Assembly: GCA_945862455.1 (NCBI GenBank)
Contig: CAMAXU010000003.1
Coordinates: forward strand, 419 to 64,418
Direction: 5' to 3'
DNA from: Rickettsia typhi
GTDB taxonomy: Bacteria; Pseudomonadota; Alphaproteobacteria; Rickettsiales; UBA1997
DNA: 64,000 bases
The notes beneath the pieces were generated by a model. The model was not told the origin of the DNA. It saw only the letters and a list, made by a program, of their open reading frames with translations, and searched no databases. This document shows, in pieces, positions 4,880 through 60,060 of this stretch (position 1 is its first letter; each line of letters opens with the position of its first letter). The translations under genes and the position numbers were made by a program.

Positions 4880-5356
4880 TTACGGATGTAAATTTACCGA
4901 TTTTGTTTGATCATCTCGGAATTTCTTTAATTTTTCTGCCAAAACTTCATCTGACAAAGCTAAAATTGCAATTGCTAAGAGAGCGGCATTTTTGGCGCCA
5001 GCTTCACCAATTGCCAAGCATCCAACCGGAATTCCTGCTGGCATTTGAACTATCGAAAGTAACGAATCCATTCCTTTAAGCGCGCGGCTTTCAACTGGAA
5101 CGCCAAGAACCGGAAGTTCAGTCATTGCGGCGGTCATTCCCGGCAAATGAGCGGCACCACCGGCACCAGCGATTATTACTTTTATGCCATTTTCTTTTGC
5201 CGATTCACAAAATTCGTAAAGTCTTTTTGGAGTGCGATGTGCAGAAACAATTTTTGTTTCGTAAGAAACAGCAAAATTATCAAGAATTTTGCAGGCATGT
5301 TCCATGGTCGCAAAATCTGATTTGCTGCCCATGATGATTGAAACTTTGGTTATCAT
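4880..5356 (-). CDS. purE: N5-carboxyaminoimidazole ribonucleotide mutase
   Basis: 158 aa. IMGSKSD and [10 protein letters not shown] motifs, typical PurE length. Confidence 0.9.
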
Positions 5357-5379
5357 AAAATATTAAAAAATTGTGAATT

Positions 5380-8300
5380 TTAAGGACACATGCCTGTGCA
5401 ACCTGCGCTGTTAAGAATTAGGGCATTATCAATACATTTTACTTCAAAATCTCCGTACATATTCCAGTTTCTTTTGCAGCCAAATCCATTGTCGACGCTG
5501 TCATGATTAGACTCTTTGCATGTATAAGTTTGATAATGATTTAATGATGATGAGACGCAGTTGCTATTAAAATGCACATATAATGTTCTATATTTGTCGC
5601 AGCCAGATATATCTCTTTCATAAGATGTTCTAACGCCATTTGGGTTTGATGCTGTTCCTCTGCTGCAACCTCTACAAGCTGAGCAAGCATTAGAAACTGA
5701 TCCCCAAGATCCGCTTGCGCTGCAAGTTATTGTTGGAGATATGTCTGTTCTATCATATGCATTTCTTCCACAGCTATTGTCATAACTTCCAGAAGTTCCT
5801 CCATCCACAGCTTTTCCATATCCAGATGCGCAGTTCAGAGTTATTGTAGTGCCTGCTGCGATATAAGTGTTGCCGAAGTAAGTTTGTCCGCTGGGAATAT
5901 CGTTTTTATTGCAATATTTTATACATTTCTTGCCACTATTTTCTATGGCATCAAAATAGAGTTGATCAATGTAATTAAGTCCATTTGACGCGTATGAACA
6001 TGTATAATTTGTGATCGCTGATTTATTAGTAGAGTCAATATAATCTGATTCCACATATCCACTTTTACAACTGCTTGTAGTTGGCGAACTGCCAAGTGGA
6101 ACATAGTGATTGGTTGTATCATAATTTGCATTACTATCAATATCATCACTAGAAGTTACAGTGCCATTGTCATCGACGATCATGCCATTATTGGCAACAC
6201 ATTGAGGTACAACATCATCCCATTTATGAGTAATTTCGTTACATTTTCTTGCCAAAGCATAATAACCAACGCCACTGGAAGCGCCAAGTCGATCTCTTTG
6301 ATAATGAACAGCATTTTGACCAGTAAGGATAGGATTAGTTATATAGGCTGTAACTCCAAAATTTGTATCAGGCCAGTTAACGGTAAGAGTTAATCCGCTA
6401 TTTGTTCCATCATTTGCCGAGATTAAATGTTGAGTTCGACCAGCTCCAATTCTTGAATCTCCGCTTCCGACACCAGTATCAGAATTTACGGAATAGCCGA
6501 TACATTTATTAATACAGCTTGAAGAAGTAGTGCTCCAAACATTTGCAGTTCCATTTGTAATGATAACCGAACGACAAACTCTTTGTGGGCGAGTCTCAAC
6601 TGCTCGAGTATCATTAGCAAGGTTGGTGGGAATTGTTCTTAATGCGCTATTTGCTCCACTGTCGGTGCGGTAAGGTCCACTGTTGCTAATTGTAAATGGA
6701 GTGCCGTCTTTATCATTAAGTGCTTGATATGGATATGGATAATAGTCGCTTTCACAACCGTCATTTCCAGAAGCTGTTGTGATCACACCATCAACCTGAC
6801 CATTCAAAGGAACTCCGATTACTTTGTTCCAATAAGCCATACCGCTTCCTGGAGAAGTTGTTATTGTGGCATCACATTGAGTAGTGCAAGGATTTATAAC
6901 TGGACCCCAATTTCCCATGTGATCACAATTGCGTGTTGGGTTAATGCCGCTATTTGGATCAGAAGAAGTTTGGTTAACTCTAAAGAAGCCCAAAGATTGA
7001 TTTCCACCGCCACATGATCCAGTTGCAACTGATTCTGTTTGAATGCGAAGTGGGCTTCTTGAAGCATTTGTGGTCGGGAATGTTGCGCCACCTGAATTAT
7101 ACCATTGTTGCCAATCAGATGTAGATGAAGGATTTGATGGCGGATTAATAGCCGGACATTGAATTCTTACGCAGGCATTTGTAACAGTTCCCCATTGACC
7201 AAGTTGGTTGCAAGATCTAGTTGGAGTAGTTCCTCCAGTATAATCTTGAATTGGCCCAAAGAATGGTCCACCGGGAACCAAAGGTGTTGCAACTTTACTG
7301 CCCGTATTAGTTGAAGTTGATCCAGTTCTTTTAAAGCCTGTAATGCAAGAAACGAAAGGGTTTGGAGAAGTTGGCGTTTCTAGAAAATCATTGGCTTTAG
7401 TGTAAGATGTCCAAGTAGCAAAACCATGTCCCGATCCTCTCGTACCAGAAAGGGCGCTCAAAGATTGATAAGTTGCTTCATTAACTTCAAGCGCTCCGTA
7501 ACCACCTTGATAAAGACCAGTTGCATCTGGTCCGGTTGTTGAAACTTCGTCACATGTATAGCGTATGCAAGGATTGGTAACTGCTGCATCCCATTGCGCT
7601 GCTCCATTAACATTCAGACAGCTTCTTTTTGGCGGAGTAACTACGCCGGCACCATTTTTAGCAGGGCGCCAGAATCCGGTGCAAGTTCCTTCAATATCAG
7701 ACATGCCAAAAACTCCAAGTGGGAATTCAGCATGGCCAGTTCCGGCACTGCGTAATTGATGTGAAATATGAACGACATTACTTGTAACTGAAGATGAGGC
7801 GCCGTAAGTAGAATAACCTAATGAAGATTGAGTAAAATCAGGATCGCTCGGGTTTGAAGTGTTTGCAGTGGTGTTATAATCAATTGCGCTGCAAATTTGT
7901 GGAACTGGCATGGTAACGCAAAGACCAGCTTCATGAAGAGTCTCAGTTCTAGCTATTTGATTATCTGCAAGTGTAGTTCCATCTATATAATCTATACATT
8001 TACAATTAGGAGTCTTACCGCCTTCTGGACAAGAAGAGGGATTGGCTACTAGACATTTGCCTCGAGTTCCGTCCGTCATTTTGTAGGCTATAATATTTCT
8101 TAATTTTGTTGCAAAACCAGAGCTGACACAAATTTCATTAAACCAGCCGTAATAATTACCGGTTGCAGCAGCAGAAAGGTTGGTATTGGTGATGGTCGAA
8201 GTGTCAGAAGTAGTGTTCCCTTTTTTCTTATTGCATAGCGGTAGCAGAATCTCGTTACAATTTTTTCTAACTGCAAGATATGAATCTATTGATCGTCCGG

Positions 8301-11172
8301 CATTTTTCTCGGTTTGCATCCTTACTTCATTGACAATGCATTCATTATTAAGTTGCGAACATTCTTCGCGTTGAACGCAAAGATTATATGATTCGGTCGT
8401 GGAGCTACAGGTTGGAATATTAACATCACTATTAGTCAATTTTATTTCTGCGCTACAGGCATCATCAACTGTGCAACTATTATCAATTCCATTAGCACCA
8501 AATCCACCTAAGTAACGAATTATAATAGAGGAATTGCTGTAAGTGCTTGCTGGGTCGAGAGAAAGCAGTATTTTTTTAGGACCCGTTTCTGGCAATGGTG
8601 ATGTAGCAGTATTGTTAATTTCCGGTAAAATTCTATCAACGCATCCGATTCTCATTGGGTTAAGGTATGTGCCGTTAATGTCTTTAATTTTACGGTAAAG
8701 GCAGAAAATTGGTTTTGATCCTGCATCATCATATTCTTTGCGTACAAAAGTTTCTAAAGAATAGGTAGCATTATTTACAGTGGTGCTTATTGTAGCGCTA
8801 CCATTAGAATCGCCACCAGTATTTTCATATCCGGTATATCCTATACCTAAACTAAGTTTTTTTGTAGTGGCGCCAAATTGAACAGTAATTTCTGGATAGT
8901 GGAAATCAGTCGGTCCATATTGTTCACTAGTTGCGTTAGAAATTGAGCCACCACGAACTATAGAAGAATTTAGAATATAAAGTGGCGGAGTAAAAAGTTT
9001 CAAAGAATTTGTAATATTTGCTAAATTAGAAAAACGAGGCGTGCCAATTCTTAATGCAGTTTTGATACATTCTTGCTCTGGAAATAATTGCCCGTCTTTA
9101 TCTAAATATCCCCTTACCGCGCTACCTGATGGTCGATTATTTTTAATATAAGGAATATGGTTTGATCCACCAAGCTTGATGGCTCGCCATTTTGTGGCTT
9201 CAGATTTGTTGTCAAAAGAACTTTTGCCACCATCGCATGATCCATCAGATTTGCGCAAGCCGGAAATACAAGTTCCATCACTTAATTTTTCAGAAGCATC
9301 AAGAAAATTCAAGGGATTGGAGTCTGGATAGGCTAATTGTCCTTTAACATCAAGGAAAGTACAAATTCGGTTATCGGGATATTTCACCGCTCTGATTCTA
9401 AGATAATTATCAATAATACTAGCGCATTTTTTGTTGTTAGCATTGGGATTTTGGGGATTTTGAAACATATCATTATTCATCATACATTCAGTTGGGGCAG
9501 TATCGGTTACGCTAAGTTCGCGACAAACGTCATAGCCGCAAACCTGATTTCTACAGACGTCAAATGCGCAACTAATACCGCATTCACGGGAACCACAGGT
9601 TTCAGATTTGCCGTCATCGGGACGCATTGCATTTTTAAAGCGCAAACAAACAACTAATTTATGGGTTCCAGAATTCTTAGTAAAGGTAGTTGAAACATAA
9701 CCTTTGTGGTAGGCAGTGTAATCAGAAACATTGGAATATAAGCTTCCACCGTTGCCGCAAAGATAAATATAACCATTGCCGCGGGAACCATCACGAATAC
9801 CACCACACAGACCAGGAGATCTGGTCTGGTCTGGTGATAAATAAGAATGATAATATCCCAGATCAATTGTTCCTAAAGGTTCCAAATCAATTCTCGGATG
9901 TGCACCCCAACCAAAGCTGTCCATTTGTGATTTACTATAACATAAACTACTATTCATGTTTCTCAATATTCCGCTATTATTAGTTGATTTATTCATCGGC
10001 TGAGGTCTATAAAACCATGAATTCATGGTATCAGAATTTGAGCCAATTGTTCCGTCATCAGATGGAGTTGAGGTTATGCATTCGGGTTGGGAGTTATTGG
10101 AAGATTGATTGCAATCAATTGTAAGATAACAATAGCTATTGGCGCAAGTTGCTCCTGCTCCGCTTGAATCACAAGAATTATTTCTTACCGTAGGTGTAGT
10201 GGCTTCATTTGGGGTGCAGCGATATTGTCTTTTTATGACCGGTTTGCAAGTAACAGCTGAACAAATCCCTGTTCCTAAGTCATAATTGGCATTAACATAT
10301 CTTTTATAATCTGCGACGTAAGATGTTCCTTGATTGGTAATATTTAAAGTATCATCAGTTCCACAAGTGGAAGATGAAGGAGGGCAATTGTGAATTTTGC
10401 ATGTGGTGTTTAAAACCATGTAAGGTAATTGTGCCTGAGTGAATTTATAGCATTTTAAAGTTGAGCCATCTGTAGCGGTATCGCCATTACAATATTTTTT
10501 TGGTATGTAAGATGAGTTTTCTGTCACTTTATCGAATTCTTTTTTAAATTTTGAATCATTTAGCTCATCAGGAGTCAATAAATTACAAGGAAGTAAATCA
10601 CAATTTACAGTTGGAGATGGTGAGCTAGTTTGATGACAGCTTCTACCAATAGAATTAGAAGTAGTTACAGTTATGCCTGATTCCGGAGTATCTTTAAATC
10701 TGATGCAATCGCGATTATGTACGGCATAATCAACGCCTCTGATATTTTGGGGTTCGCGGCTTGGATTAGGATCGGTAAAAGATGCGTCACTACATTCTCT
10801 AACGCAATTTTTTCCAGGATTAGCGGTGTTACCAGAGTCAATATCGCTGCATAAAGGCAAGTCGGACAAGTCAGCACAATTATAGCGGTGAATTTGACCG
10901 GAAGTTAAAACATAGGCTGAACTGACGGCATAAGAAGCGCTTGGAATTGTTTGGCAAAGTGGCTTTCCAAAAAATCCGCAACCACCATTTGCAGTGTCAG
11001 CGTAACCTGGTTTTGGAGTTCCTGCAACATTGGCGCAATCAGGAAGAGTAATGGAATGAGTTTGGGGAGAATAGAAAAAAAGTGAAATCCCGAAAATTAA
11101 AACGCCAAAACCCGACAAGCGTTTTGCAGCTTTTATGAATTTAGCGATTTTTTCAGGATTTATATAATTCAT
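5380..11172 (-). CDS. Giant secreted cysteine-rich protein (~1,930 aa), function unknown
   Basis: The 5,955-nt ORF is trimmed to the ATG at 11172 (MNYINPEKIAKFIKAAKRLSGFGVLIFGISLFFYS = basic n-region plus hydrophobic core). The upstream 54 codons overlap murD and look non-coding. About 92 Cys by manual count, rich in S/T/N/G, with repeated C..G[FY]...C...G.W....C modules in the C-terminal third. Confidence 0.8.
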   Translation of the reverse strand: MNYINPEKIAKFIKAAKRLSGFGVLIFGISLFFYSPQTHSITLPDCANVAGTPKPGYADTANGGCGFFGKPLCQTIPSASYAVSSAYVLTSGQIHRYNCADLSDLPLCSDIDSGNTANPGKNCVRECSDASFTDPNPSREPQNIRGVDYAVHNRDCIRFKDTPESGITVTTSNSIGRSCHQTSSPSPTVNCDLLPCNLLTPDELNDSKFKKEFDKVTENSSYIPKKYCNGDTATDGSTLKCYKFTQAQLPYMVLNTTCKIHNCPPSSSTCGTDDTLNITNQGTSYVADYKRYVNANYDLGTGICSAVTCKPVIKRQYRCTPNEATTPTVRNNSCDSSGAGATCANSYCYLTIDCNQSSNNSQPECITSTPSDDGTIGSNSDTMNSWFYRPQPMNKSTNNSGILRNMNSSLCYSKSQMDSFGWGAHPRIDLEPLGTIDLGYYHSYLSPDQTRSPGLCGGIRDGSRGNGYIYLCGNGGSLYSNVSDYTAYHKGYVSTTFTKNSGTHKLVVCLRFKNAMRPDDGKSETCGSRECGISCAFDVCRNQVCGYDVCRELSVTDTAPTECMMNNDMFQNPQNPNANNKKCASIIDNYLRIRAVKYPDNRICTFLDVKGQLAYPDSNPLNFLDASEKLSDGTCISGLRKSDGSCDGGKSSFDNKSEATKWRAIKLGGSNHIPYIKNNRPSGSAVRGYLDKDGQLFPEQECIKTALRIGTPRFSNLANITNSLKLFTPPLYILNSSIVRGGSISNATSEQYGPTDFHYPEITVQFGATTKKLSLGIGYTGYENTGGDSNGSATISTTVNNATYSLETFVRKEYDDAGSKPIFCLYRKIKDINGTYLNPMRIGCVDRILPEINNTATSPLPETGPKKILLSLDPASTYSNSSIIIRYLGGFGANGIDNSCTVDDACSAEIKLTNSDVNIPTCSSTTESYNLCVQREECSQLNNECIVNEVRMQTEKNAGRSIDSYLAVRKNCNEILLPLCNKKKGNTTSDTSTITNTNLSAAATGNYYGWFNEICVSSGFATKLRNIIAYKMTDGTRGKCLVANPSSCPEGGKTPNCKCIDYIDGTTLADNQIARTETLHEAGLCVTMPVPQICSAIDYNTTANTSNPSDPDFTQSSLGYSTYGASSSVTSNVVHISHQLRSAGTGHAEFPLGVFGMSDIEGTCTGFWRPAKNGAGVVTPPKRSCLNVNGAAQWDAAVTNPCIRYTCDEVSTTGPDATGLYQGGYGALEVNEATYQSLSALSGTRGSGHGFATWTSYTKANDFLETPTSPNPFVSCITGFKRTGSTSTNTGSKVATPLVPGGPFFGPIQDYTGGTTPTRSCNQLGQWGTVTNACVRIQCPAINPPSNPSSTSDWQQWYNSGGATFPTTNASRSPLRIQTESVATGSCGGGNQSLGFFRVNQTSSDPNSGINPTRNCDHMGNWGPVINPCTTQCDATITTSPGSGMAYWNKVIGVPLNGQVDGVITTASGNDGCESDYYPYPYQALNDKDGTPFTISNSGPYRTDSGANSALRTIPTNLANDTRAVETRPQRVCRSVIITNGTANVWSTTSSSCINKCIGYSVNSDTGVGSGDSRIGAGRTQHLISANDGTNSGLTLTVNWPDTNFGVTAYITNPILTGQNAVHYQRDRLGASSGVGYYALARKCNEITHKWDDVVPQCVANNGMIVDDNGTVTSSDDIDSNANYDTTNHYVPLGSSPTTSSCKSGYVESDYIDSTNKSAITNYTCSYASNGLNYIDQLYFDAIENSGKKCIKYCNKNDIPSGQTYFGNTYIAAGTTITLNCASGYGKAVDGGTSGSYDNSCGRNAYDRTDISPTITCSASGSWGSVSNACSACRGCSRGTASNPNGVRTSYERDISGCDKYRTLYVHFNSNCVSSSLNHYQTYTCKESNHDSVDNGFGCKRNWNMYGDFEVKCIDNALILNSAGCTGMCP

Positions 11173-12538
11173 CAAAAAGCTTACAGAAGTAGTCTCCGCG
11201 TTGTTCAAAATTTTTCCATTGATCAAAAGACGCGCAAGCCGGTGAAAGTAAAATGTTCTTTTCAGATAAGCTAATATTTTTTGCATCAAAAAATGCTTTT
11301 TTAAAAGCACTCTCCAAATCACCGCATTTTTCAAAAGCGACGGAATTTTCTTTTAAGGTTTTAGCAAATTCTTCGCTGGCATCGCCAATTAAATAAGCTT
11401 TATGAATTTTATGAAAAAATGGTGTTAAAATTGCAATGCCACCTTCTTTGGATTTGCCGCCTAAAATCCAGAAAATTTTATCATAAGCTTTTAATGCATT
11501 TTCGGTTGATTCAGCATTAGTTGCTTTGCTGTCATTAATAAATTTGATGCCATCAATTTCACCAAGCAATTGCAAACGATGACGCAAGCCACGGAATTTT
11601 TTGATGGCAGAAATTATTTTTTCTTCATCGCATTTTTGTGAATTTCTGAGAAAATGACAGTAAGTTATGGCAAAAGCAAAAGCCATATTTTGGTTATTAT
11701 GTTCGCCGCGCAGGAAATCAGATTTTAATTCTAAAAATGAGTTAGAGCCTTTGATTTTGTTATATAAATTGCCACCAAAAAGTGTGACACCATTTTCCTG
11801 AATTTTTTTGGTCGAAATCGGAACTAAACTAGCATGAAAATTTTTATCTTTTTTTAATTCATCGTAAACTTTTTTGGAATTTTCATTATCCACGTCAATT
11901 AAAGCAAAATCATCAACGATTTGGTTTTGAAAAATTCTTTTTTTTACTTCAATATAATTCGCAAGCGAGCCGTGGCGATCAATATGATCTGGCGTGATAT
12001 TTAAAAGTGCGGCGACTTTGAAATGTGACTGCCCAAAAAGATCAAGTTGGTAAGAAGAAGTTTCAAAAATATAAGAAAATTTTTTCTGATTTTGAGGTAA
12101 ATCAAAACAAGGAATACCAATATTGCCGCCAATTTCTGAAGCAATTTCAAGTTCTTTAAAAATAAAACCGCTTAATGCTGTGGTTGTTGATTTGCCGTTA
12201 GTTCCAGTGATGGCGATGAAATTATTATTTTGGCAATTTTTGCGATAAAAAATTTCTAGATCGCAAGCTAAAGTAGCGCCAGTTTTTTGACAGATTTCTA
12301 AAATTTTATGCGGTTGCGGGTAATAAAGTGGAATGCCGGGAGAAAATACTATTACAGTGTCTTTGTCATATTTAATTTCATCTGCTTTGGCAAATTTGAT
12401 GTGAGGGTTTTTGGTGCTAGCATTAACAAGTGATTTTTCATTGTCGTCGGTTGCAATAACTTCTTCGCCATTTTGGGCGAGAAAATTTACTGTAGAAATT
12501 CCGGAAATTCCCAGACCGTAAACAACGTATTTTGTCAT
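11153..12538 (-). CDS. murD: UDP-N-acetylmuramoylalanine--D-glutamate ligase
   Basis: 461 aa. Mur ligase P-loop GTNGKSTT, typical MurD N-terminus (GLGISG) and length. Confidence 0.9.
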   Translation of the reverse strand: MTKYVVYGLGISGISTVNFLAQNGEEVIATDDNEKSLVNASTKNPHIKFAKADEIKYDKDTVIVFSPGIPLYYPQPHKILEICQKTGATLACDLEIFYRKNCQNNNFIAITGTNGKSTTTALSGFIFKELEIASEIGGNIGIPCFDLPQNQKKFSYIFETSSYQLDLFGQSHFKVAALLNITPDHIDRHGSLANYIEVKKRIFQNQIVDDFALIDVDNENSKKVYDELKKDKNFHASLVPISTKKIQENGVTLFGGNLYNKIKGSNSFLELKSDFLRGEHNNQNMAFAFAITYCHFLRNSQKCDEEKIISAIKKFRGLRHRLQLLGEIDGIKFINDSKATNAESTENALKAYDKIFWILGGKSKEGGIAILTPFFHKIHKAYLIGDASEEFAKTLKENSVAFEKCGDLESAFKKAFFDAKNISLSEKNILLSPACASFDQWKNFEQRGDYFCKLFDELYKS

Positions 12539-32197: not shown

Positions 32198-33427
32198 TTA
32201 GCGTTTTTTTCTTTTTTTAGGTTTGTCATCATCATCGTAATCATCATCGTAATCATCGTCGCCATCTTCATCTTCTTCATCTTCGCTTTCTTCATCTTCC
32301 TCTTCTCCATCTTCTTCTTCGTCTCTTTCGATGCCATCAATTTCAAACTCATCAAATTCGTCTTTTTGAATAATTTTTCCTTCCGAATTTAATTTATCTT
32401 TGGCGGTTAATGTAACTTTGTCTTTAGCCTCTTCGAAATCAATTCCGTAGATTGCGCTATATTCGCTGGCTAAGCGGTTAATTGCAGTTTCGTAAATGAT
32501 TCGTTCGGAATAAGATCTTTCGCCATCTTCAATATCGCGGGTTAAATCGCGTAAAACTTCAGCTAAAAGCATGATGTCGCCAGAATTGATTTTTGTTTCA
32601 TATTCTTGCGCGCGACGGCTCCACATGCCTTTTAATTTTTTAACACCACTTCTTAAAATACTGAAAACTTCATCCATTTGCGATTTGGAAATTAAATGAC
32701 GCAAACCGATTTTTTCAGCACTATTCATTGGGATTTTAATCGTGAGTTTTTCTTTTTCGAAATACATCAAGTAGCAGCTGAGATCTTGACCCAAAACTAG
32801 GGTTTTTTCAATATCAACAATTTTACCGATTCCGTGAGAAGGATAAACCGCATAATCATCGGCTTTAAAAGTTGCTTTGAAACGGTTTTCCAATTTTTTA
32901 GTAAAGATCGCTTTTTGCGGAGCGTCATTTTTTCTTTCAACTGGTTTTTCAACCTCAATCTTTTTATCGCCGGTTTTGGCAAGAATGCTTTTAGCGAGCA
33001 TTGTTCCATGCTTAACTTTAGTTAGATCTTTTTCTTTTATTTTTGGTAAAGTTTTTACTTTTGCCGGTTTCTTAGCAATTTCTTTTTTAGTTTTTATAAC
33101 TTTTTTAGGCTGGATTTTTGGAGCTTTTTTTTTGGATACAGGTTTTTTAACTGCTTTTTTGCTAATTTTTTTAGCAGGTTTTTTAACTGCTTTGATTTTT
33201 TTTGGTGCAACTTTTTTTGACTTAATCGCAATTTTCTTTTTTGGAGCTACTTTCTTTACAACTTTTGCTGCCGGTTTTTTAACTATTTTTTGGGCAACTT
33301 TTTTTACCACTTTTTTTATGGGTTTTTTAATAGAAGTTTTTTTATTAGTTGCTGAAGTTTTGATAGTTTTCTTAACTGCTTTTTTCACTTCTTTTTTTAT
33401 GGGTTTTTTTAATTTTTTTGCCGGCAT
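32198..33427 (-). CDS. CarD/CdnL-family RNAP-binding regulator with a histone-H1-like N-terminal extension and an acidic C-terminal tail
   Basis: 409 aa. Residues ~1-135 are KKP/AKK/VKK repeats. Residues ~186-345 form the CarD_CdnL_TRCF core (DYAVYPSHGIGKIVDIE ... WSRRAQEYETKINSGD). Residues ~355-401 are D/E-only and the protein ends in KPKKRKKR. Confidence 0.85.
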   Translation of the reverse strand: MPAKKLKKPIKKEVKKAVKKTIKTSATNKKTSIKKPIKKVVKKVAQKIVKKPAAKVVKKVAPKKKIAIKSKKVAPKKIKAVKKPAKKISKKAVKKPVSKKKAPKIQPKKVIKTKKEIAKKPAKVKTLPKIKEKDLTKVKHGTMLAKSILAKTGDKKIEVEKPVERKNDAPQKAIFTKKLENRFKATFKADDYAVYPSHGIGKIVDIEKTLVLGQDLSCYLMYFEKEKLTIKIPMNSAEKIGLRHLISKSQMDEVFSILRSGVKKLKGMWSRRAQEYETKINSGDIMLLAEVLRDLTRDIEDGERSYSERIIYETAINRLASEYSAIYGIDFEEAKDKVTLTAKDKLNSEGKIIQKDEFDEFEIDGIERDEEEDGEEEDEESEDEEDEDGDDDYDDDYDDDDKPKKRKKR

Positions 33428-54602: not shown

Positions 54603-55487
54603 TTAACGACGAACAGCATCAATTCTGGGTGACAACCTTTTTCTTTTGGTTTGCTGTTCTGTATCGCTGTCTGAAGCACTTCTTGTAGCATCGATTATTT
54701 CATCCGAAAGCCTAGTTACTATTGCGCTTGAAGAGAAGATACTATTTGGAATGCTTCTTTGATTTAACAAAGCTTCTATTTCCTCAAAACCTTCTGACTC
54801 TCTTAATTGCAGATTTAAATTTTCGCGAGCGTTAGCATCAATTATAATTTCTTGTTGCTGTAAAAGAAGTTTTGAAATTTCTAGGTTTCCGCTTCCAATT
54901 GCTGTTGCGAGAACTGAGTTGCCATTATGGTTTATGGCATTGATGTCGGCACCTTTTTGAATAAGGGAAAACGTGATTTCCGCATTATCGGAATTGCTAT
55001 CTGCGATATAATGCAAAGCAGTATTGCCGTTTCGATTGGTGAATTTTACATCGGCATTTTGTGAAATTAAAAAACTCGCAACATCAAAATTTTTGCAATA
55101 GATTGCGAGTATTAATGCAGAAAAGCTTTCTGTTGTTGAGTCAATTAAATCAGGCCTTTTTTCAATTATTAAACTGCTTACTTCCAAACTACCAAATCCA
55201 AAATGAAGTTCATTATAACCGGCATTAGTTGGATTTCCTAAAACTGCGCCTCGATCTATTAAAAATCGCAAAGCATCAACTTGCGAATGACGTGCTGCAA
55301 AATGGGTAGCAGCAGCGTCATATAGATCATCACAGCGATTAATATCTCCAGGCCTATTTCCTAAAAAACTTTCTAACCCTGCAATATTACCATTTTGGGC
55401 GGCACGCAAAAATTCAAGAAATTCATTGTCACTGGTGTGACCTAAAGATTCTTCAATTATTGCGATATTTAAATTTGCAATCGCCAT
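54603..55487 (-). CDS. Ankyrin-repeat protein
   Basis: 294 aa with about 6 ANK units (e.g. GNTALHYIADSNSDNAEITFSLIQKGADINAINHNGNSVLATAIGSGNLEISKLLL). The basic C-terminal tail is TKRKRLSPRIDAVRR. Confidence 0.85.
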   Translation of the reverse strand: MAIANLNIAIIEESLGHTSDNEFLEFLRAAQNGNIAGLESFLGNRPGDINRCDDLYDAAATHFAARHSQVDALRFLIDRGAVLGNPTNAGYNELHFGFGSLEVSSLIIEKRPDLIDSTTESFSALILAIYCKNFDVASFLISQNADVKFTNRNGNTALHYIADSNSDNAEITFSLIQKGADINAINHNGNSVLATAIGSGNLEISKLLLQQQEIIIDANARENLNLQLRESEGFEEIEALLNQRSIPNSIFSSSAIVTRLSDEIIDATRSASDSDTEQQTKRKRLSPRIDAVRR

Positions 55488-55977: not shown

Positions 55978-57576
55978 TTAATTTTTAAAATTTTCGCGCA
56001 TTAATTTAAAAGTAATACTATCGTGAAGCGCGCGAAATGAAGCGTCAACGATATTTTCCGAAACACCAATTGTTGTCCATTTACTTTCACCATCTGTTGA
56101 CTCAATCTGCACTCGTGTAATCGCTTGCGTGCCATCTGATGGCGTTAAAATTCTAACTTTATAATCAGTTAATCGTACATTTTTTAAACTTGGATATTTA
56201 CGCGAAAGACTTTTGCGAAGCGCTTTATCTAAAGCATTCACCGGCCCATTTCCTTCGGCAACTGCCATTGTGGTTTTATTGCCGATTTTAATTTTTATTG
56301 TTGCCTCGGCAATGGTTAAAATTTTGCCTTTGGCATCGAATTTTCTTTCGTCCAAAACACGAAATCCAACCAAATCAAAAAAATTCGGCACAACTGAAAG
56401 TGATTTTTTAGCCAGAATCTCAAAGCTGGCGTCAGCCGCATCATAAGCGTAACCTTTGGCTTCCAACTCTTTTACTTTATTTACTAAATCTGCAATTTGG
56501 CTAACTTTTACTTCATCGCGCATATCAATGCCAATTTCTTTTAAACGTGCGATAATATTGGAACGGCCGGCTTGGTCGGAAATCATGATCTGGCGCTGAT
56601 TACCAACTTTTTCTGGTTCGATATGTTCGTAGGAAGTTGGGTTTTTAGCAACTGCCGAAACATGCAATCCGCCTTTGTGGGCGAAGGCATATTTGCCAAC
56701 ATAAGGCGCAAATTTGTCGCGTTCTTTATTCAATAAATCATCGAGAAAATTGGCGGTGTGAACCAGATTTTTTAAATGCTTTTCATCAATTCCAACATCA
56801 TAACCCATTTTCAAACAAAGAGTTGGAATGATGCTGATTAAATTAGCATTGCCGCAACGCTCACCCAAACCATTGATTGTTCCTTGAACTTGGCGAACTC
56901 CTGATTCAACGGCAGCAAGTGAATTGGCAACGGCATTTCCGGTGTCATTGTGACAATGAATTCCTAAATTTTCGCTTGGAATATGTTTGGTAACTTCTTT
57001 AACAATTTTAGAAATTTCGCTGGGCAAAGTTCCGCCGTTGGTGTCGCAAAGCACAACCCAACGCGCGCCTGCTTCGTAAGCGGTTTTAGCAGCTTTAAGG
57101 GCAAATTTTGGATTGGCTTTATAACCATCAAAAAAATGTTCGCAGTCAAACATCGCTTCCTTTTTTTTCTTCACGATATGTTTGATTGAATCAGAAATCA
57201 TTTCCAAATTTTCACTTTCAGAAATATGCAGCGCATGCTCTAAATGGAAATCCCAAGTTTTACCAACAATGCAAACTGATTTCACATCACTGTTAATTAA
57301 AGCGTTTAAACCATTGTCATTAGAGGCTGAAACGCCATTGCGGCGCGTCATACCGAAAGCAGAAAAACGGGATTTTTTTAATTTTGGTAGATTGGCAAAA
57401 AACTCATCATCAGTTGGATTTGCGCCCGGCCAGCCACCTTCAATATAATCAATTCCCAAAGCATCTAAAGCGCCGGCAATTTCAATTTTATCCTGAATAG
57501 TAAAATTCACCGTGCTAGTCTGCGCGCCGTCGCGCAAGGTTGAATCATATAAATAAACTCGTGGTTTTTTTGTCAT
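55978..57576 (-). CDS. cimA: (R)-citramalate synthase (LeuA-related, CimA subfamily)
   Basis: Trimmed to MTKKPRVYLYDSTLRDGAQ; the longer ORF overlaps mraY. IDYIEGGWPGANP, GKTWDFH, EHFFDGYKANP, HCHNDTG and GERCGNANL are typical of the ~530-aa CimA-type branch rather than classical LeuA. Confidence 0.75.
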   Translation of the reverse strand: MTKKPRVYLYDSTLRDGAQTSTVNFTIQDKIEIAGALDALGIDYIEGGWPGANPTDDEFFANLPKLKKSRFSAFGMTRRNGVSASNDNGLNALINSDVKSVCIVGKTWDFHLEHALHISESENLEMISDSIKHIVKKKKEAMFDCEHFFDGYKANPKFALKAAKTAYEAGARWVVLCDTNGGTLPSEISKIVKEVTKHIPSENLGIHCHNDTGNAVANSLAAVESGVRQVQGTINGLGERCGNANLISIIPTLCLKMGYDVGIDEKHLKNLVHTANFLDDLLNKERDKFAPYVGKYAFAHKGGLHVSAVAKNPTSYEHIEPEKVGNQRQIMISDQAGRSNIIARLKEIGIDMRDEVKVSQIADLVNKVKELEAKGYAYDAADASFEILAKKSLSVVPNFFDLVGFRVLDERKFDAKGKILTIAEATIKIKIGNKTTMAVAEGNGPVNALDKALRKSLSRKYPSLKNVRLTDYKVRILTPSDGTQAITRVQIESTDGESKWTTIGVSENIVDASFRALHDSITFKLMRENFKN

Positions 57577-57590
57577 TTCGTTATTTATTT

Positions 57591-58646
57591 TTAAACCAAA
57601 AATATCGCCATTCCAAGAATTGCAAACAAAGCCGAAGCGCTCCAGAAGGTTCTCACAACTTTCTGCTCCGACCATCCTAATTTTTCAAAATGATGATGCA
57701 GTGGTGCCATTAAAAAAATTCTTTTTTTACGAAGTTTGTAGGATCCAACTTGTAAAATTACCGAAACTGCTTCGGCAACAAACAAAATTGAAATCACAAA
57801 AAATACAAATTCTTGTTTAATAATAATCGCGATAACACCAAGGGCAGAGCCAATCGACAGACTTCCAACATCGCCCATAAAAACTTTTGCCGGCTTTAAA
57901 TTGAAAGTTAAAAATGCTAAAATAGCGCCAATTAAAGTTATGCAAAAATAAATCAATTCTTGCGAATTTTGAATGTTGGGAACGAAAAATTTTTGGTTAG
58001 TAGGATCAGGATTAGTGCCAATTAAAATCAAGGCACCAAGACAAACAGCATTAATAATTGCCGGAACTGAAACTAAGCCGTCAAGCCCATCTGTAAGGTT
58101 AACGGCGTTGGAAGTGCCGACAATTACGAAAGTTACAAATAACACATAAAGCACTATTCCAAGTGAAATCCAATGTCCCGAGCCGATTGGCAGGTAAACA
58201 CGATTTTTAAAATGAATGGCATCAACACTTCCCAGCCACACAAAAGCAGCGCCGATAATTATGAATTGAATTATTAATTTTATACTGCCGCGAAAGCCAT
58301 TGGGATTTTTGTAAATTACTTTCATCAAGTCGTCTGTAAGTCCGATAAGAGCGAAGGCTACAAAAACAAAACATACAATCCAGATGTAGGAATTGCTTAA
58401 ATCAAGAAAAAGAAAAGTTGAAATTAGAGTAGCCAAGACAATAAAAATTCCGCCCATTGTTGGGGTTTTTGTTTTTGTATGTATGTGACTTTCTGGTCCA
58501 TCTAGGCGGATTGGCTGATAAATGCTTTTAGTATTGATGAAGGAAATATATTTTTTAGTACTAAAAAATCCGATAAGATATGATGAAGCCAAACAAATAA
58601 AGGCTTTAACCCAGATATTTTGCAAAAGAACTAAACTAGTGAGCAC
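57591..58646 (-). CDS. mraY: Phospho-N-acetylmuramoyl-pentapeptide transferase
   Basis: 351 aa, about 10 TM. NAVNLTDGLDGL and MGDVGSL motifs. Confidence 0.92.
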   Translation of the reverse strand: MLTSLVLLQNIWVKAFICLASSYLIGFFSTKKYISFINTKSIYQPIRLDGPESHIHTKTKTPTMGGIFIVLATLISTFLFLDLSNSYIWIVCFVFVAFALIGLTDDLMKVIYKNPNGFRGSIKLIIQFIIIGAAFVWLGSVDAIHFKNRVYLPIGSGHWISLGIVLYVLFVTFVIVGTSNAVNLTDGLDGLVSVPAIINAVCLGALILIGTNPDPTNQKFFVPNIQNSQELIYFCITLIGAILAFLTFNLKPAKVFMGDVGSLSIGSALGVIAIIIKQEFVFFVISILFVAEAVSVILQVGSYKLRKKRIFLMAPLHHHFEKLGWSEQKVVRTFWSASALFAILGMAIFLV

Positions 58647-60060
58647 TGGTTTTATTGGTTAATTTTTCAATTATTTTTTCCATCTTTGTTCCACGCGAAC
58701 CTTTAACATAAAGAATATCGCCATCTTGCAAAAGATTCTGAATTTCAAGACTTGCCGAAGTTGAGTCGGAAAAAACTTTATAAGGATTGGATAAATTTTT
58801 TGTCATTTCAGTCATTCTTTGTCCAACTGCAACAACAAAATCAATTTTTGATTCATTTAAATATTCCGCGATTTCATTATGCAATTCAACTGATTTTTCA
58901 CCAAGTTCTAACATATCTCCAATTGCGGCGATCACACGGTTTTTGCCCAAAGCATTTTTTAGTTCAGTTGCATATTCAAATCCAGCGCGCATTGAAGGCA
59001 AACTGGCATTATAACTATCATCAATAATTGTTATGATTTTTTGATCAAAAAAAACGTCAAAAGCCTTGCCGCGACCAGCGATATTTTCTATTTTTGAAAG
59101 CTCAATAAGACCAAGATTCAAATCTTTTGTTAGCAAATCAAGAGCTGCGGCAATGATTAATGAATTAAAAATCATAATTTTGCTGCTGGCAGAAATTTTG
59201 TAGAAAATCTTAGTTTTATTTTTAGTGGCGATAGAAACTTCAGAATTATTTATGTCAATGATTTCAGATTTTTCTAGGCAATAGTTGCTTTCAAGGTTGC
59301 GGCCAAAACTCAAAATATTTTCTGTTTTTAATCCCGCGATTTCAGCCTGTTTTTTGATAAATTTAAAATGCAGATTGTCGCGATTAATTAACGCAATTCC
59401 ATCTTCATTTAATCCGGCAAAAATTTCCGATTTTGCCAGCGCGATTTCTTCTTCATTTTTGAAAAATTCTATGTGCACCGGCCCAACATTGGTAATGATT
59501 GCGAGGTGAGGGCGCGCCAATTTTGAAAGAGGTTTAATTTCATTGAAATGATTCATGCCCATTTCAAAAATTCCGAAATCGCAATCTTTCGAAAAATTAC
59601 AAAGTGAAAGCGGCAAACCAATATGGTTGTTGAGATTGCCAAAAGTCGCGAAAGTTTTTCCATAAGTTGAAAATGCTAATTTCAACATTTCTTTGGTGGT
59701 GGTTTTTCCAACTGAACCAGTAATGGCAATGATTTTTGCCAGACTTCTTTTGCGCGAAAAAGCAGCGAGTTTATAAAGCGCTTCAAAAGTGTTTTTAACT
59801 AAAAGAAAATCAGAGTTTTTAGTTTTTTCTAAAGCAGATTTATTGTGAACCAACAAAAGTTTGCAGCCATTATTTGCAGCTTGTTCAAGAAAATCATGGG
59901 CATCATTATTTTCACCTTTTAGCGCAATAAATAATCCTTTTTTGGGAGTTTTACGACTGTCAATTATAACTTCATCAATTGCTAAATTATCTGTAATTTT
60001 ATGCTCTAAAATCTCGCCAGATAATGCTTCAATTAATTCTTCTTTCGTCCAAAGTGTCAT
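58636..60060 (-). CDS. murF: UDP-N-acetylmuramoyl-tripeptide--D-alanyl-D-alanine ligase
   Basis: 474 aa. Mur ligase P-loop GSVGKTTTK; overlaps the mraY start by 11 nt. Confidence 0.9.
   Translation of the reverse strand: MTLWTKEELIEALSGEILEHKITDNLAIDEVIIDSRKTPKKGLFIALKGENNDAHDFLEQAANNGCKLLLVHNKSALEKTKNSDFLLVKNTFEALYKLAAFSRKRSLAKIIAITGSVGKTTTKEMLKLAFSTYGKTFATFGNLNNHIGLPLSLCNFSKDCDFGIFEMGMNHFNEIKPLSKLARPHLAIITNVGPVHIEFFKNEEEIALAKSEIFAGLNEDGIALINRDNLHFKFIKKQAEIAGLKTENILSFGRNLESNYCLEKSEIIDINNSEVSIATKNKTKIFYKISASSKIMIFNSLIIAAALDLLTKDLNLGLIELSKIENIAGRGKAFDVFFDQKIITIIDDSYNASLPSMRAGFEYATELKNALGKNRVIAAIGDMLELGEKSVELHNEIAEYLNESKIDFVVAVGQRMTEMTKNLSNPYKVFSDSTSASLEIQNLLQDGDILYVKGSRGTKMEKIIEKLTNKTSAH

Follow-up and report, generated by a model that had tools for sequence, protein, structure and literature searches.

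A family of giant, cysteine-rich and probably exported proteins with Sushi-like modules and a hypervariable C-terminal tail in uncultured Rickettsiales

We analyzed a stretch of 64,000 nucleotides (nt) of contig CAMAXU010000003.1 (assembly GCA_945862455.1), hereafter the window, whose minus strand carries a giant gene lodged between murD and purE. Its open reading frame (ORF) spans 5380..11334 and, read from the ATG at 11172, encodes 1,930 amino acids (aa), including exactly 92 cysteines; serine, threonine, glycine and asparagine together make up 38% of the protein. It is the longest ORF of the window, the runner-up reaching 860 aa. An earlier sequence-only reading of this DNA, made without database searches, had announced a protein of about 1,930 aa with about 92 cysteines as the longest gene, starting at ATG 11172, and these points all hold. 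As homologues begin with MNY at the position matching this ATG, it is the conserved start, and the longer versions of the protein found in databases are over-extended gene calls. The protein combines a conserved N-terminal part, seven enlarged tandem modules resembling eukaryotic CCP (Sushi) domains and a short tail that is replaced between close relatives, and we tentatively read it as an attachment or recognition fibre. The features of the giant gene, followed by its two neighbours, are as follows.

5380..11172, minus strand: coding sequence of the giant protein, 1,930 aa, 92 Cys, stop codon 5380-5382 (from the ORF list; start set by the MNY N-terminus of homologues)
11053..11172, minus strand: putative Sec-type signal region, residues 1-40 (n/h/c pattern common to 25 homologues, by inspection)
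10048..11052, minus strand: cysteine-dense N-terminal region, residues 41-375, largely coil and short helices, with 24 Cys that are almost all invariant
7900..10047, minus strand: conserved core, residues 376-1091, unique beta-rich domains and a helical hairpin
7567..7893, minus strand: module M1, residues 1094-1202; Cys 1094, 1164, 1185, 1202; Trp 1194
7171..7554, minus strand: module M2, residues 1207-1334; Cys 1207, 1276, 1321, 1334; Trp 1327 (the Pfam Sushi match of homologue P0117 maps here)
6886..7158, minus strand: module M3, residues 1339-1429; Trp 1422 (hhalign M2-M3, 96.7% probability)
6514..6876, minus strand: module M4, residues 1433-1553; Trp 1546; beta/gamma-crystallin insert in some homologues
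6205..6504, minus strand: module M5, degenerate, residues 1557-1656, only two Cys, Trp 1651 (HRM and Ephrin_CRD matches of homologue P0073)
5923..6201, minus strand: module M6, residues 1658-1750, four Cys, without Trp
5683..5913, minus strand: module M7, the most canonical, residues 1754-1830; Trp 1823 (Pfam Sushi and Ephrin_CRD matches of homologues P0087, P0049 and P0057)
5665..5685, minus strand: junction CSACRGC, residues 1830-1836, border between conserved body and variable tail (family-wide consensus CxxCRxC)
5383..5664, minus strand: hypervariable tail, residues 1837-1930, 94 aa, 7 Cys, motif KC[IVL]D[GN] kept
11153..12538, minus strand: murD, conserved upstream neighbour (TIGR01087, 346 bits)
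11153..11172, minus strand: overlap of 20 nt in which murD ends (DELYKS, then stop) and the giant gene begins (MNYINPE)
4880..5356, minus strand: purE, conserved downstream neighbour, 23 nt past the giant gene stop codon

The protein had been described as an orphan, which turned out to be wrong: a search of 5.8 billion clustered proteins returned 147 relatives at E<=1e-3, all of them unnamed or annotated as 'hypothetical', and the gene was found in 52 GTDB species, every one known from a metagenome-assembled genome (MAG; one genome per species examined). Nearly all 147 relatives measure 1,800-2,200 aa and align over 90-100% of the query with 33-90% identity. A phmmer search with residues 36-1100 against 1.84 billion representatives gave 121 proteins, essentially the identical family. 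In a few longer relatives (2,400-3,700 aa, up to 3,712 aa) the similarity is limited to residues ~675-1100, and Pfam scans of seven longer distant relatives revealed no informative extra domains. On the evidence of these searches, the family is real, narrow and undescribed.

The N-terminus presents, by eye, the pattern of a Sec signal, in which a long, basic n-region leads into the hydrophobic core GFGVLIFGISLFFY, followed by SPQTHS as c-region. A basic n-region and hydrophobic core had already been noted in the window protein; the same arrangement was found by inspection in 25/25 homologues, which have a long basic stretch, a hydrophobic core of 13-18 residues and a short Ser/Ala-rich region ahead of the first invariant Cys. 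The signal may be cleaved; the long conserved n-region makes an uncleaved signal anchor possible. A bacterial lipoprotein was considered and rejected on inspection, as the lipobox [LVI][ASTVI][GAS]C is missing and the first Cys stands in LPDC, with Asp at -1.

Residues 376-1091 are the most conserved part of the family, and identity to distant members amounts to 41-58% in the N-terminal half and 33-49% in the C-terminal half. Scans of the window protein against Pfam, NCBIfam, PHROGs and PADLOC gave no matches, nor did PDB sequence searches with the single protein or with a 41-sequence profile. AlphaFold2 models built from 59-sequence alignments reached a mean predicted local distance difference test (pLDDT) of 85.7 for residues 36-1100 and of 83.7 for residues 1090-1930, with a predicted template modelling score (pTM) of ~0.5, as expected for chains of domains. 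Comparison of the N-terminal model with PDB and BFVD by Foldseek returned low-probability noise only (probability <0.3), and tile-by-tile hhalign of the N-terminal half found neither internal repeats nor similarity to CCP modules at >=50% probability. The N-terminal ~1,050 aa, as modelled, thus appear to match no known fold among the databases searched, so that ~1,000 residues are confidently modelled and yet have no known fold.

The sequence-only reading had recognized no tandem-repeat periodicity, a view overturned by the C-terminal ~740 aa: residues 1094-1830, read from sequence, consist of seven tandem enlarged CCP/Sushi-like modules. Six of the seven have four Cys, which are kept in every aligned homologue (n=41) for M1-M4 and M6 and in 83-100% for M7, while M5 has two. 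A Trp precedes the last Cys in all modules except M6 (W1194, W1327, W1422, W1546, W1651, W1823) and is 83-100% conserved. Most modules also show CxxG[YF] at the second Cys, and 3-4 residues separate the last Cys of a module from the first Cys of the next. Pairwise hhalign probabilities (M2-M3 96.7%, M2-M4 93.5%, M3-M7 88.7%, M1-M3 88.4%) confirmed, at the level of sequence profiles, that the modules are related to each other.

When the model of the C-terminal half was compared with PDB by Foldseek, the best matches were CCP arrays (beta2-glycoprotein I, Crry, CD55, factor H, MASP/C1r) and the Sushi-containing cysteine-rich region of EphA4. Probabilities were 0.8-0.9, the best E-value was only 1.3e-3, and template modelling (TM) scores were low because the models are multidomain. 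The Pfam scan of 25 members detected Sushi in 3/25 and the Sushi-like Ephrin_CRD in 8/25; the Sushi matches of P0087 (25.4 bits) and P0117 (25.7 bits) exceed the gathering cut-off of 20.7 and map to M7 and M2, respectively. As in the eukaryotic CCP/Sushi (SCR) arrays (PF00084), the window protein has tandem beta-rich modules in which a Trp precedes the last of four Cys, as well as CxxG[YF] and linkers of 3-4 residues. It differs from them in its bacterial host, in modules of 77-128 aa and in the joining of the array to a 1,050-aa core and a hypervariable tail. Because the modules are larger than ~60 aa and M5 and M6 are degenerate, we call them CCP-like and do not count them as PF00084 members. 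A canonical CCP domain folds as a beta-sandwich with C1-C3 and C2-C4 disulfides. Sushi-like modules are rare in bacteria. A beta/gamma-crystallin domain was also observed inside M4 of P0073 (residues 1434-1512) and of P0057 (residues 1493-1531), at a place corresponding to residues ~1450-1469 of the window protein, which has no insert; such a domain would fit an extracytoplasmic location.

In a comparison of 41 homologues ~68 Cys proved invariant, and 88/118 family members have an even total of Cys, the median total being 96. Invariant and mostly even Cys would fit a fully disulfide-bonded extracytoplasmic protein, and ~46 disulfides are probable in the giant protein. The ratio of nonsynonymous to synonymous substitution rates (dN/dS) over the whole gene was 0.47 against locus L008, the closest relative, 0.32 against L001 and 0.20 against L002, and the body is under purifying selection. 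The selection that had been presumed from the length of the uninterrupted ORF is thus borne out by these ratios (0.20-0.47); together with the Sec-type N-terminus and the invariant cysteines, they support the proposal of a selected, exported, disulfide-rich giant protein. The dN of the giant gene is 3-8x that of murD, rpe, purE and mlaD. Also, in the comparison with L008 its whole-gene dS is 0.115, locally up to 0.16 outside the tail, vs 0.03-0.08 in flanking genes; outside the tail (5665-11172) it amounts to ~2-3x that of the flanking genes, which hints at extra recombination across the locus.

The C-terminal tail, our main new finding and a feature overlooked by the sequence-only reading, behaves differently from the body. 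In a sliding comparison with the closest relative, the last ~130 codons gave a dN of 0.55 and a dS of 1.48, vs a dN of 0.01-0.05 and a dS of 0.03-0.16 elsewhere. DNA identity to L008 is 95-98% upstream, ~45% in 5340-5680 and 98-100% in purE, the drop from ~97% coming exactly at the tail. The alignment of 28 proteins at least 75% identical is conserved until CSACRGC and then splits into five or more tail types (94-146 aa) that look unrelated. For instance, the window protein and P0001 share 91% identity along the 700 residues ahead of the junction and 27% beyond it; with P0123 the values are 94% and 32%. Other species clusters show the same break between body and tail (P0053/P0150, 93%/26%; P0008/P0148, 97%/12%; P0071/P0152, 82%/26%). 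Tail types are shuffled relative to bodies: P0008, with 72% body identity, shares the tail type of P0123, and P0144 joins a window-like body to the tail of the P0002 group.

All tails nevertheless retain the motif KC[IVL]D[GN] and a shared cysteine framework. The tail is therefore a single domain built on this framework, and recombination swaps its sequence as a cassette. As 111/118 members have an odd number of tail Cys, a disulfide probably links one of these to a Cys elsewhere in the protein. The 64-kb window was found to contain no further copy of the tail, whether as silent cassette or as template repeat, and no reverse transcriptase context was seen. A diversity-generating retroelement target was rejected, as the window holds no template repeat and the tails differ by indels, with ~45% DNA identity. 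A database search with the tail alone gave no candidate, because the 90%-identity representatives carry other tail types. When near-identical strains differ by a swapped terminal domain, this marks the domain as exposed to another organism, which it binds or by which it is targeted.

The tail could also be mainly an escape surface, i.e., the exposed end of a conserved essential protein that serves as receptor for phages or predators, with alleles kept by negative frequency-dependent selection and with no binding function of its own. Discrete tail types across diverged bodies and the saturated dS of the cassette fit old alleles moved by recombination, as this explanation would have it, and the raised dS of the body relative to the flanking genes goes in the same direction. 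Against it, no phage is known for the lineage, and the scans returned no relative in viral contigs or PHROGs. We regard it as unlikely. It overlaps the reading as a recognition fibre, since both need an exposed tip, and sequence data do not separate the two.

The polymorphic toxins CdiA and Rhs likewise consist of a giant conserved body that ends, past a conserved junction motif, in a variable cassette exchanged by recombination, and the body of the giant protein could in principle deliver a variable C-terminal toxin past CxxCRxC, as VENN demarcates CdiA-CT. A polymorphic toxin with linked immunity was nevertheless rejected, as the gene directly downstream is purE and not an immunity gene. There is no room for one in the window, because purE starts 23 nt past the stop codon, and no immunity gene lies downstream in L011, L092 and L093 either, where purE follows directly or within tens of nt. 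Also, the window holds no orphan cassettes, and no TPS (two-partner secretion), FHA, Rhs-repeat, PT-family or toxin domain was detected in Pfam, nor anything in PADLOC. Finally, the tails share their cysteine framework and KC[IVL]D[GN], as expected of one small varying fold and not of unrelated toxins. A role as toxin or competition effector is thus very improbable.

The family was found only in uncultured aquatic Rickettsiales. Its carriers include RIFCSPLOWO2_01_FULL_40_26, UBA2645 and C-132, which are 3/4 of the founding genomes of Candidatus Gamibacteraceae; these three MAGs have syntenic homologues, with murD 44-73% and purE 73-82% identical. Candidatus Gamibacteraceae (Rickettsiales) was founded on four genomes and described as aquatic, with nucleotide and most amino-acid biosynthesis, and without flagella or ATP/ADP translocase (bioRxiv 10.1101/2021.08.31.458344; PMC9352585). 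These bacteria were judged likely extracellularly host-associated, as their relative Deianiraea (PMC10847448). Gamibacteraceae and relatives are known from metagenomes only, and these studies leave open how they interact with hosts (PMC9352585, PMC10847448). Among the genes of the window are purE, purF, citramalate synthase, dxs, CstA, a DctA/GltP-type carrier, an oligopeptide-binding protein and an ankyrin-repeat protein, a gene content in agreement with this description as regards nucleotide and amino-acid synthesis. As the window fits Gamibacteraceae, the 'probable intracellular bacterium' of the sequence-only reading is not supported: biosynthesis and transporter genes are present, and the lineage is probably extracellularly host-associated (PMC10847448). 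It is reasonable, judging from the sequences, to consider the source as a probably host-associated Rickettsiales. A scan with LeuRS was uninformative, with 55% identity at most outside the clade, and the taxonomy follows from MAG names that match the description of Gamibacteraceae. Our literature search on giant cysteine-rich or Sushi proteins of these bacteria found nothing relevant.

The gene order NDUFA12-mlaD-DUF2155-rpe-murD-giant gene-purE persists while the identity of the giant protein drops from 90% to 27%, and the giant gene lies between murD and purE in ~40/52 loci, most exceptions being contig ends. The family is conserved and vertically inherited. The overlap of 20 nt with murD, which had been predicted exactly, recurs identically in L008 (6001-6020), L011 (7163-7182) and L093 (10001-10020). 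Co-transcription with murD, likewise proposed earlier, is probable, and so is translational coupling through the overlap. The 3,712-aa distant relative is also found between murD and purE, with a 203-aa ORF parting it from murD. In L142 and L145, which belong to distant MAGs, murD adjoins purE and the relative of the giant gene comes after purE, an order suggesting that the position between murD and purE arose by later rearrangement or insertion. L112 and L126, both from MAG CAZUPN01, carry two diverged copies, 38% and 33% identical to the window protein, with neither murD nor purE alongside; they may be paralogues or reflect a mixed bin.

The dcw cluster is indeed broken near murD, as had been noticed, and the break falls between mraY and murD: murF (58636-60060) and mraY (57591-58646), followed by citramalate synthase, lie 45 kb from murD in a minus-strand region (55978-60060). 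The neighbours NDUFA12, mlaD, DUF2155, rpe and purE are mixed housekeeping genes. Because the operon mixes unrelated functions, the linkage to murD looks like tight packing of housekeeping genes and not like a sign of cell-wall function.

These observations bear on another explanation, according to which the giant protein is a structural protein of the periplasm or envelope, i.e., a scaffold, a tether or an element of cell shape or cell wall between the membranes, whose place behind murD would then point to a role in the envelope. Such a role is conceivable because no outer-membrane route is visible: the protein has a Sec-type signal, yet no recognisable device for outer-membrane translocation or anchoring. 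Its conserved neighbourhood holds the envelope genes murD, mlaD, DUF2155 and a lytic transglycosylase, and it is single-copy, vertically inherited and retained in small genomes. However, the operon also contains the unrelated rpe, purE and NDUFA12, so that adjacency carries little weight, and no peptidoglycan-binding domain of the LysM, OmpA or SPOR type was found by Pfam in the window protein and 25 homologues. Above all, replacement of the last 94 aa from strain to strain is hard to explain for a hidden protein. A periplasmic role is therefore, in our opinion, rather unlikely.

We favour a disulfide-stabilised fibre made of a conserved base, a CCP-like stalk and a swappable recognition tip, with a role in attachment or recognition, and we give this reading a probability of about 0.45, i.e., slightly less than even odds. 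The N-terminal core of ~1,050 aa would probably be the base, held in or on the envelope, and the seven enlarged CCP/Sushi-like modules would form the stalk. The C-terminal domain of ~94 aa past CxxCRxC would be the distal tip, exchanged among strains by homologous recombination. In this orientation the tip would be exposed outside the cell, where it would bind a polymorphic partner or have to escape binding by it. This partner would most likely be the surface of a protist host of the probably ectosymbiotic Gamibacteraceae, with phages or neighbouring cells as alternatives.

The preference for an attachment or recognition fibre comes from the lineage being probably extracellularly host-associated. 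The putative Sec-type N-terminus, the invariant cysteines, the CCP-like array and the beta/gamma-crystallin insert point to a protein working outside the cytoplasm; the Sushi-like modules, the strain-specific tip and the ~46 probable disulfides suggest a molecule that acts where the bacterium meets another organism. The host-interaction role imagined in the sequence-only reading gains from the assignment to Gamibacteraceae and from the hypervariable tip.

Several points weigh on the other side. The CCP assignment rests on weak scores (best Foldseek E ~1e-3), the window protein itself has 0 Pfam matches at E<=1, and modules of 77-128 aa compare with a canonical CCP length of ~60. The host association of the lineage is itself deduced from MAGs. 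Also, no outer-membrane route is evident, neither a beta-barrel nor a TPS domain, sorting tag or lipobox being found with Pfam, NCBIfam, Foldseek and inspection.

Giant modular exported proteins with a variable end are already known as a general kind. The intimin/invasin inverse autotransporters have a comparable layout, in which a signal and a base at the N-terminus are followed by a stalk of small beta-domains in tandem and, at the C-terminal tip, by a variable domain that binds. Unlike them, the giant protein has no N-terminal outer-membrane beta-barrel, LysM or Big domains, its stalk is CCP-like and not Ig-like, and its disulfide content would be very high. An autotransporter, inverse autotransporter or two-partner secretion protein was rejected, as no barrel or TPS match was obtained by Pfam and NCBIfam (window protein and 25 homologues) or by Foldseek. 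A giant adhesin of the RTX/type I class was set aside as well, with no RTX, Big or cadherin matches in Pfam and a Sec-type N-terminus present. Myxococcus TraA and F-plasmid TraN are exported, cysteine-rich proteins that associate a conserved part with a polymorphic specificity domain, in the manner proposed for the giant protein. No sequence or domain similarity to them was detected, and the giant protein differs by its 1,930 aa, its C-terminal variable cassette, the lack of a MYXO-CTERM tag and the lack of a conjugation context. What is new here is the undescribed family, and the joining of a CCP-like array to a junction-delimited hypervariable tip without immunity gene.

The giant gene represents ~0.5% of a genome of ~1 Mb, occupies one chromosomal site in at least 52 species and is 'hypothetical' in every database. 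The protein is thus a concrete candidate for an attachment or recognition device, and its tail type could be used as a population marker. A more ambitious proposal is that the family constitutes a new bacterial surface recognition system, in which a fibre fixed in the chromosome and typical of the family, with a CCP-like stalk that is both ancient and bacterial, would carry a small cysteine-framework tip drawn from a population-wide allele library and exchanged at CxxCRxC as a dedicated junction, tip type setting the specificity of extracellular Rickettsiales for host or partner cell. We consider this doubtful, if somewhat less so than the periplasmic and escape explanations. If true, a family known only from MAGs would owe its attachment above all to this fibre, which would also be a marker of how host association works prior to intracellularity, and its core of ~1,050 aa would contain several new folds.

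Some other features of the window and of related contigs can be mentioned. Scans for consensus promoters and terminators performed no better than on shuffled sequence. In related contigs, genes for VirB3 (L092, 22684-22980) and TrbI/VirB10 (L093, 23251-24609) are present within ~10 kb of the giant gene, which fits a scattered type IV secretion system (T4SS) of the Rickettsiales type. An ankyrin-repeat protein of 294 aa, encoded on the minus strand of the window at 54603-55487, is weakly similar to T4SS effectors of the Legionella Ank type; ankyrin-repeat proteins of such type are typical of host-associated bacteria. On the plus strand, 1495-2193 encodes a eukaryotic-type (alpha) carbonic anhydrase (PF00194, E=1e-30) that is conserved beside the uvrD-like helicase in L008, and the ORF at 5-982, cut at the window start, contains a PF21722 glycine-rich domain, the full gene measuring ~514 aa in L008. 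Lastly, a CarD-family protein with an N-terminal extension of ~185 aa is encoded at 32198-33427 on the minus strand, in a stretch of unusually strong AT skew (-0.21).

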